Shown here in pieces: positions 27,634 through 28,136 of a stretch of 39,137 nucleotides of DNA. The DNA comes from Stramenopiles sp. TOSAG23-2 (Eukaryota): positions 1 through 39,137 of the forward strand of contig LT649313.1 in NCBI GenBank assembly GCA_900128395.1. Reading direction: 5' to 3'. A program made the position numbers and the translations under genes. How positions within the stretch are numbered: the first letter of the stretch is position 1; the number at the start of each line of letters is the position of its first letter. The notes under the pieces are model-generated. The model was not told the DNA's origin, ran no database searches, and saw nothing but the letters and a program-made list of their open reading frames with translations.

Positions 27634-27722
27634 TTGCATCAATTAGTTAGCTTATATGTTTTTCTGCAAAGCAATCGCTATTCAGGGGATTGACAGATTA
27701 TATATTATTTTTTCATTTGCAA
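27634..27722 (-). ncRNA. Intronic box C/D snoRNA, copy 1; predicted guide for the 18S U equivalent to human Um1288 (SNORD110/snoR14-type)
   Basis: Minus strand: TTGCA-A-ATGAAAA...AATCTGTCAATCC-C-CTGA...TTGA-TGCAA. The 13-nt guide (27699-27687) is exactly complementary to the 18S at 35989-36001; the +5 rule gives the U at 35998. Terminal boxes are non-canonical. Confidence 0.75.
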
Positions 27723-27799
27723 AATAATATGTTGTGTATATATATATATGTAAGATAAAGGAAGATCGTTTCATATTATTATTATTATCATTATTATTA

Positions 27800-27888
27800 T
27801 TGCATCAATTAGTTAGCTTATATGTTTTTCTGCAAAGCAATCGCTATTCAGGGGATTGACAGATTATATATTATTTTTTCATTTGCAA
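27800..27888 (-). ncRNA. Intronic box C/D snoRNA, copy 2 (identical tandem duplicate of copy 1)
   Basis: Same sequence 166 nt away. Guide at 27865-27853, D' CTGA at 27851-27848. Confidence 0.75.
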
Positions 27889-28000
27889 AATAATATGTTG
27901 TATATATATATATGTAAGATAAAGGAAGAAATACATTGTTTGTTTTCAAATAAATGATTATACGTTTTCTGTTTGCTTGTTTTATTGTTTTTTGTTTTTT

Positions 28001-28136
28001 TTTTACCTCAGGACAAATGTCAACTGTTCACATCATCGATTTTACCTATACTAATCCTTTTACAGACGTTCAAATAAAAAAGTGAACTCAGTATTCAAGT
28101 TTCTGTTTTCGTTTTTAAATCTTCATCGATAAAAAA
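28001..28136 (-). ncRNA. Intronic box C/D snoRNA 3, predicted guide for a C in the 5' domain of 18S
   Basis: Terminal stem TTTTATC/GGTAAAA; box C ATGAAGA (28126-28120); guide CAGAAACTTGAAT (28105-28093); D' CTGA (28091-28088); C' ATGATGT (28036-28030); D CTGA (28011-28008). The guide is exactly complementary to 18S at 36926-36938; the +5 rule gives the C at 36935. Confidence 0.85.

Follow-up and report, generated by a model that had tools for sequence, protein, structure and literature searches.

Why does the intron of a putative ion-channel gene in a stramenopile hold a cluster of box C/D small nucleolar RNAs (snoRNAs), and is it of any consequence that the 18S rRNA gene matched by their guides lies on the same piece of DNA? 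The locus lies in a window of 39,137 nucleotides from Stramenopiles sp. TOSAG23-2, which is a whole contig (G000:C689) of an assembly of 32.8 Mb in 9146 contigs. A sequence-only reading of this window had pointed to two different 13-nt antisense elements on the sense strand of the host gene, each placed one nucleotide before a CTGA box, and the same elements were found here at the same coordinates (Table 1). They are perfect complements of the 18S rRNA of the window, one sequence occurring once and the other twice, and all three stand at a D' box, with a single base separating each of them from CTGA; their 13 nt fall within the 10-21 nt expected of the antisense element of a C/D guide. Between positions 27440 and 28340 these three 13-nt complements, all on the minus strand, are the only rRNA matches longer than 10 nt, and in 31,000 non-rDNA bases, both strands included, every element in which 11 or more perfect bases precede CTGA (three of three) is one of them. 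When the intron was shuffled 20,000 times with its dinucleotides preserved, the mean number of 13-nt elements was 0.00055, one element arising in 11 shuffles and two or more in none; the guide scores are 30, 31, and 31, as compared with a median of 13 and a maximum of 25 for 250 background boxes. Such combinations of guide and box lie far outside what chance would produce, and for the guides chance can be excluded.

Predicted methylation sites were assigned by the fifth-nucleotide rule, which gives 18S C304 and U1241, the same two window positions (36935 and 35998) that the earlier reading had named. On the D-box sides of the three RNAs, scores against rRNA are 10-15 (background median 13), and no target was found for these sides in U2, U6, SRP, or the ITS and other spacers. 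In the spacer upstream of the 18S gene, sno1 has an in-register match of 9 bp; its score of 21 is the background 95th percentile, and it was rejected.

Table 1. Features of the cluster, its host gene, and its predicted rRNA targets (window coordinates)
Feature	Position	Strand	Details
sno1, box C/D RNA	27999..28136	minus	C 28126-28120, D' 28091-28088, C' 28036-28030, D 28011-28008; 9-bp terminal stem
sno1 D' guide, 13 nt, predicted Cm304	28093..28105	minus	complementary to 18S 301-313
sno2a, SNORD110/snoR14-type C/D RNA (predicted)	27800..27888	minus	C 27882-27876, guide 27865-27853, D' 27851-27848, D 27808-27805; 5-bp stem
sno2b, identical tandem copy of sno2a	27634..27722	minus	C 27716-27710, guide 27699-27687, D' 27685-27682, D 27642-27639; 5-bp stem
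Predicted sno1 target, 18S 301-313	36926..36938	minus	C304 at 36935
Predicted sno2a/b target, 18S 1238-1250	35989..36001	minus	U1241 at 35998
Host exon 1	28328..28704	minus	ATG at 28704; N-terminus, TM1, pore-like segment, TM2 start; ends in phase 2
Intron, 886 nt, GT-AG	27442..28327	minus	donor 28327, acceptor 27442; branch-point-like ACTAAC near 27508
Host exon 2	21714..27441	minus	Kir cytoplasmic domain, three GST (DHAR/CLIC-like) repeats, Q-rich tail
86-nt repeat, four copies	29325..29928		junction of unique DNA and SRP/rDNA block; also in five other contigs
18S rRNA gene, sole copy in assembly	35429..37238	minus	

Three C/D snoRNAs had been proposed, and boxes, stems, and guides were found for all three. 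However, the 89-nt cores of sno2a and sno2b, 166 nt apart, are 100% identical, and therefore the cluster contains only two distinct RNAs; outside the cores, small indels and substitutions distinguish the flanks of one unit from those of the other. Stems and boxes are at canonical spacing, and in each RNA the terminal C and D boxes, which are non-canonical but mutually pairing, are closed by a short stem of 9, 5, and 5 bp, respectively. The outer ends of these stems (28136 and 27634) coincide with the limits given earlier for the cluster. The anatomy of sno1 is the most complete of the three, with C (AUGAAGA), D', C' (AUGAUGU), and D boxes and the longest stem, over 119 nt from C box through D box, and the combination of AUGAAGA with CUGA recurs in a SNORD12-like RNA of the same genome. 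The C box of sno2 (AUGAAAA) departs from RUGAUGA at three positions and is accompanied by the D box UUGA, and no convincing C' box was found in sno2, in contrast to sno1. At the altered C/D positions the kink-turn normally has a U-U and a G-C pair. The changes in sno2 are complementary, replacing these with two A-U pairs, and may thus represent compensation. The terminal stems are not favoured by free folding (z of 1.12 and -0.43); when the cores are held open, all three stems form and extend. The long helices in the spacers consist of (AT)n pairings, which are common across the genome, and they are therefore not regarded as RNase III sites. A DNA search of the assembly revealed no copy of sno1 or sno2 beyond those in this intron.

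The assignment of sno2 rests on its guide and on the position of its target. Guide and D' box together agree letter for letter with the SNORD110 model over 18 nt, and the guide element is also carried by Ot-CDsno90 of Ostreococcus tauri, which is expressed in that alga and listed as SNORD110/At-snoR14 with 18S Um1202 as its target in the available part of that study (PMC7671301). In addition, U1241 lies 38 nt before U1279, which corresponds to human Um1326, and this spacing equals that between Um1288 and Um1326 in human and between Um1232 and Um1270 in Arabidopsis, where Um1232 is mapped and equivalent to human Um1288, as U1270 is to Um1326 (PMC8351944, Supplementary Table 3). These observations bear out the proposal that the target corresponds to human Um1288 and support the view that sno2a and sno2b are SNORD110/snoR14 homologues directed at U1241. 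The Rfam search that had been suggested as a check was favourable in part: the 18-nt identity is there, but the score against SNORD110 (RF00610) is 22.1 bits (E 0.11), whereas the gathering score is 64 bits, and the snoR16 model scores higher on sno2 (28.4 bits) without a guide match. Because its score lies under the RF00610 cut-off, sno2 is best described as a target-level homologue of SNORD110 rather than as an Rfam member, and no snoRNA in the window, including all three RNAs described here, attains an Rfam gathering score. Thus, sno2 shares the D' guide, the box, and the 18S uridine with SNORD110, snoR14, and Ot-CDsno90, but differs from SNORD110/snoR14 in its unusual C and D boxes and its tandem duplication. 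Like sno2, Ot-CDsno90 is intronic in a non-ribosomal gene, according to what is accessible of its description; unlike sno2, for which no second guide was found, it has a second guide there.

No such family is at hand for sno1. Its best Rfam match is snoU6-47 (E 4.8), no U6 target was found for it, and no cytidine near position 300 appears in the site table for Arabidopsis, human, and yeast (PMC8351944), against which C304 was tentatively placed by site numbering; the accessible O. tauri supplement, including Table S4, holds nothing relevant on a C304-like site or guide (PMC7671301). A metagenome scan for the sno1 guide with its box gave at least 120 loci and 125 matches, with 102 distinct flanks among the matches listed. 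Five of these 102 have a full C/D frame, as compared with 28 of 2454 control boxes, and 97 lack C/D architecture; the listed matches are mostly chance, and a SNORD110 partner occurs at no locus among them. The five framed matches collapse to two families, both from other eukaryotes. In one (L036/L061/L064/L065/L106), the C304 guide stands at the D box with one more, 14th, paired base, the boxes are canonical, and three tandem copies lie in (CA)n-rich DNA adjoining exons that we take to be those of a chlorophyte-type pyruvate dehydrogenase gene. In the other (L067/L085/L102/L112/L113), the guide stands at D', with AUGAGGC as C box and CCGA as D box. None of the guide RNAs of these homologues has an Rfam match up to E 0.5. 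Since they share little with sno1 beyond the searched pattern, they provide moderate support for a common target, possibly reached by convergence. At one of these loci (L061, 1376 on the minus strand and 2950-3850 on the plus strand), an extra C/D guide for 28S C1513 lies beside the three C304-guide copies, and the L061-type RNAs also carry a D' guide for which no target was found.

The host gene had been described as an ion-channel gene with one intron, and both parts of this description are supported. Splicing of exons 1 and 2 gives a single frame of 2034 amino acids with this as its only coding-region intron. A paralogue on another contig (G000:C2445) is intronless at this point and aligns with 61% identity over 318 amino acids, ungapped across the junction, and five homologues read through it. 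In the protein cluster of exon 1 (P0009, 49 members), 14 of the 15 members listed end at the same donor-derived codon, and in two related clusters four of six proteins begin with unrelated residues exactly at the acceptor and the other two at a later methionine. The intronless paralogue and these relatives support the reality of the intron. Close homologues of the host (P0008, P0019, P0156) break at further positions of the Kir domain, suggesting introns that are absent from the window gene. In a tree of 15 rows, the three rows labelled as having the intron fall together on one side of a branch (support 78/91; a value as low arose in 19 of 500 shuffles of the labels); the root of this tree is unsure and five rows are under half filled, and it fits a recent gain of the intron without showing one. 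At the paralogous locus a guide RNA was sought without success; the two scanner hits there are antisense within coding sequence.

As to the channel itself, the start of exon 2 matches Kir2.2 (E 3e-6), and the paralogue passes the Pfam cut-off for IRK_C (PF17655) and has Kir clusters as its Atlas neighbours. Pfam did not detect IRK_C in the split exons of the window, exon 1 alone gave no channel match, and a search for full-length homologues of the host found none. Nevertheless, two membrane helices followed by an IRK_C-type cytoplasmic domain support a predicted Kir-like channel gene with three GST domains, which shares the cytoplasmic domain and two hydrophobic segments with Kir2.2 and KirBac but differs from them in its pore segment, its three fused GST domains, and its Q-rich tail. 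The potassium filter motif is TxGYG/GFG. This motif is absent from both the host and the paralogue; their pore segment reads IVGAG, and the potassium selectivity of the host is therefore doubtful. The union of a Kir-like channel with three DHAR/CLIC-like GST domains (21714-28704, minus) makes the product a candidate glutathione- or redox-linked channel. At the paralogue locus (L134/L135), a GST frame begins right after the Kir frame ends, in a different frame, and the C-terminal region of P0006 looks GST-like by eye, for which no match was obtained. Six RNA runs, as contigs, hold 0.34-0.39 of the sampled words of positions 26500-29500, of which coding exons make up 44%; since the part represented could be any, and contigs cannot show RNA ends, this share is no evidence of expression. 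The runs that have this stretch and a named habitat are marine or seawater metagenomes.

No support was found for the idea that the adjacency of the 18S gene matters. C/D guides act in trans. The 18S, 5.8S, 28S, and SRP RNAs were all identified by Rfam on the minus strand, and an 86-nt repeat marks the junction between unique DNA and this block. Among the five other contigs with the repeat, three have different unique flanks and stop where the window continues toward the SRP RNA and rDNA, and two depart from this pattern. The window flank is therefore probably one of at least four rDNA flanks, and the adjacency of snoRNAs and rDNA is probably incidental. We infer that the rDNA is a collapsed, dispersed block, and rDNA dispersal of this type has been published for Aurantiochytrium, as far as the accessible text goes (10.1101/2023.06.15.545109). 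The 86-nt repeat, whose units have up to two GTAAGT motifs on the plus strand and which gave neither an Rfam match nor a folding signal, is probably an rDNA-junction or subtelomeric repeat. In 30307-31424 (minus), the SRP RNA gene follows directly downstream of the 28S gene; before it stand two copies of its 5' end, both truncated, and a duplicate of the 28S 3' end. Elsewhere in the window there are a two-RRM RNA-binding protein (596-3463, plus), an intronless open reading frame of 4394 amino acids with weak RCC1-like and tail-sheath-like Pfam matches and internal repeats (6279-19463, plus), and a TPR protein (19968-20969, minus).

Clustering had also been suggested to be a habit of this lineage, and the rest of the genome agrees. 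Five snoRNA families were sought; U14, U18, and U24 were found, all three in clusters, and searches of the genome for snoR38 and SNORD33 found nothing. On contig C5502 the cluster has at least three C/D RNAs, on C4317 at least seven, and on C721 five, which supports clustering as the norm for snoRNAs of this genome; the polycistronic processing proposed for the lineage is putative. In two of the three clusters the first C box is preceded by GTAAGT, at distances of 114 and 123 nt (background 0.30 per strand-kb), and these two are possibly located in untranslated introns. The cluster on C4317 lacks a protein-coding frame, and the 152 nt of upstream sequence at hand contain no GTAAGT. The C721 cluster (L139 1050-1950; L142), with U24, snR60, a SNORD12-like RNA, and two more, lies head-to-head with the gene for RPA49, an RNA polymerase I subunit, possibly in a 5' untranslated intron. 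The loci on C4317 (L138) and C5502 (L136) are long non-coding clusters of C/D and H/ACA-like units split by (AT)n, with internal duplications, and L136 includes a C/D RNA that has its boxes but lacks an rRNA target (2185-2077). An assignment of the A890 guide on C5502 as snR60-like was rejected, as Rfam places snR60 on C721.

Overall, it is likely that the Kir-GST gene hosts the three-RNA C/D cluster, that the RNAs are released from its intron and guide in trans to U1241 and C304, and that the rDNA is an incidental neighbour. RNA polymerase II would transcribe the gene and the intron, which homology supports, would be spliced out; C/D snoRNPs would assemble on the three kink-turns closed by the terminal stems; and cleavage within the AT-rich spacers, followed by trimming, would yield RNAs of about 80 and 120 nt. 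The one RNase III-domain protein encoded in the genome, of 2168 amino acids, is only a candidate for the cleavage between units. In the nucleolus, fibrillarin would then be guided in trans to methylate the 2'-O of U1241 by the two identical SNORD110/snoR14 copies, presumably products of a recent tandem duplication, and that of C304 by sno1.

A cluster with its own promoter inside the intron, or one released without splicing, would leave the channel gene merely surrounding it. In its favour, some 190 nt of AT-rich sequence separate the donor from sno1, the C4317 cluster lacks a frame and an upstream GTAAGT, and most O. tauri clusters (10 of 12, according to the available part of PMC7671301) are independent; however, the cluster lies on the host strand and wholly within a supported intron, and the GTAAGT shortly upstream of two of the three other clusters hints at an intronic habit, so that this arrangement appears quite improbable. 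It is unlikely, though less so, that the SNORD110 copies are the sole functional methylation guides, with C304 unmethylated and sno1 acting as a chaperone or weak guide, or else decaying. The lack of an Rfam family for sno1, the absence of its site from the Arabidopsis table and the accessible O. tauri Table S4, the large majority of listed matches without C/D architecture, and the little that the homologues otherwise share would speak for it, but sno1 has the fullest anatomy of the three RNAs, framed matches are more frequent than among control boxes, and these fall into two families, in one of which the guide pairs a 14th base and the RNA occurs in tandem copies.

The complete identity of the 89-nt cores in so fragmented an assembly might suggest that an assembly error produced the second SNORD110 copy, or even that the whole pattern is due to chance; with unit flanks that differ by small indels and substitutions, and with chance excluded for the guides, this is very improbable. 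A functional role for the rDNA placement is extremely unlikely. In such a case, read-through or nucleolar tethering would couple snoRNA supply to rRNA synthesis, the cluster lying 3 kb downstream on the same strand, with rDNA, SRP RNA, and host gene on one strand within 10 kb and another cluster head-to-head with the RPA49 gene. However, the same junction ends three other contigs with different unique flanks, the SRP gene and repeats intervene, and no rRNA gene occurs in the scanned stretches of the three other clusters. Intronic release with guidance in trans is the preferred reading. A bolder extension of it, in which a mobile polycistronic cassette created the intron in an unrelated gene, so that one Kir-GST paralogue recently gained the intron together with its cluster, and in which sno1 also represents an undescribed 18S Cm304 guide family spread across eukaryotic supergroups and missing from human, yeast, and Arabidopsis, is tentative and, as a whole, unlikely.

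The rarity of such a cluster and host had been overstated, since intronic clusters in Ostreococcus and non-ribosomal hosts, both in Tetrahymena and for Ot-CDsno90, are already published, as the accessible parts of these reports show. O. tauri has 72 intronic and 49 clustered snoRNAs, with two intronic clusters, of which cluster 3 lies in the unique intron of its host, and about half of its hosts are genes of ribosome biogenesis or RNA processing (PMC7671301), while the Tetrahymena hosts include dynein and translocase genes (PMC3273799). Likewise, the statement that animals have one snoRNA per intron is true predominantly but not without exception, and protist annotation is poor, according to the available text of a 2024 review (PMC11028025). 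Green algal and plant intronic clusters, such as O. tauri clusters 3 and 5 and those of Chlamydomonas (Chen et al., 2008), contain several snoRNAs per intron of a protein gene in what is accessible of their descriptions, as is the case here; the present cluster differs in probably belonging to another supergroup, its 18S having stramenopile-like signatures, and in its Kir-GST host, and its precursor and nuclease are putative. In intron-poor fungi, snoRNA introns are retained, and an intron-lacking paralogue is rarely seen for RPL7 (PMC8476143, available part). Like the present gene, RPL7 (snR39-59) and NOG2 (snR191) carry their snoRNA introns in genomes rich in genes but poor in introns, and the Kir-GST gene also has an intron-lacking paralogue. 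RPL7 and NOG2, however, are ribosome genes with ancient introns, whereas the Kir-GST intron appears confined to a close clade and holds a cluster. Yeast polycistrons are cut by RNase III (PMC12508059), snoRNA mobility is treated in PMC3511168, and PMC8226300 and PMC4513859 give scant detail, all in their accessible portions. No description of stramenopile snoRNA clusters was found in the literature searched, and an Ectocarpus snoRNA catalogue may already cover them.

Finally, it should be noted that an intronic snoRNA cluster is a known kind of arrangement, for which no new mechanism is needed; one of its guides is predicted to be aimed at a site, C304, absent from the reference lists. The locus adds a data point on snoRNA gene organization for a protist lineage without annotation, in which clusters are the rule. 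The remaining interest lies in two leads, namely, a predicted methylation of 18S C304, for which distant eukaryotes also carry candidate guides, and an intron that is present in one paralogue and absent from the other, possibly through recent gain. This difference between paralogues could serve to date a snoRNA-linked intron gain.
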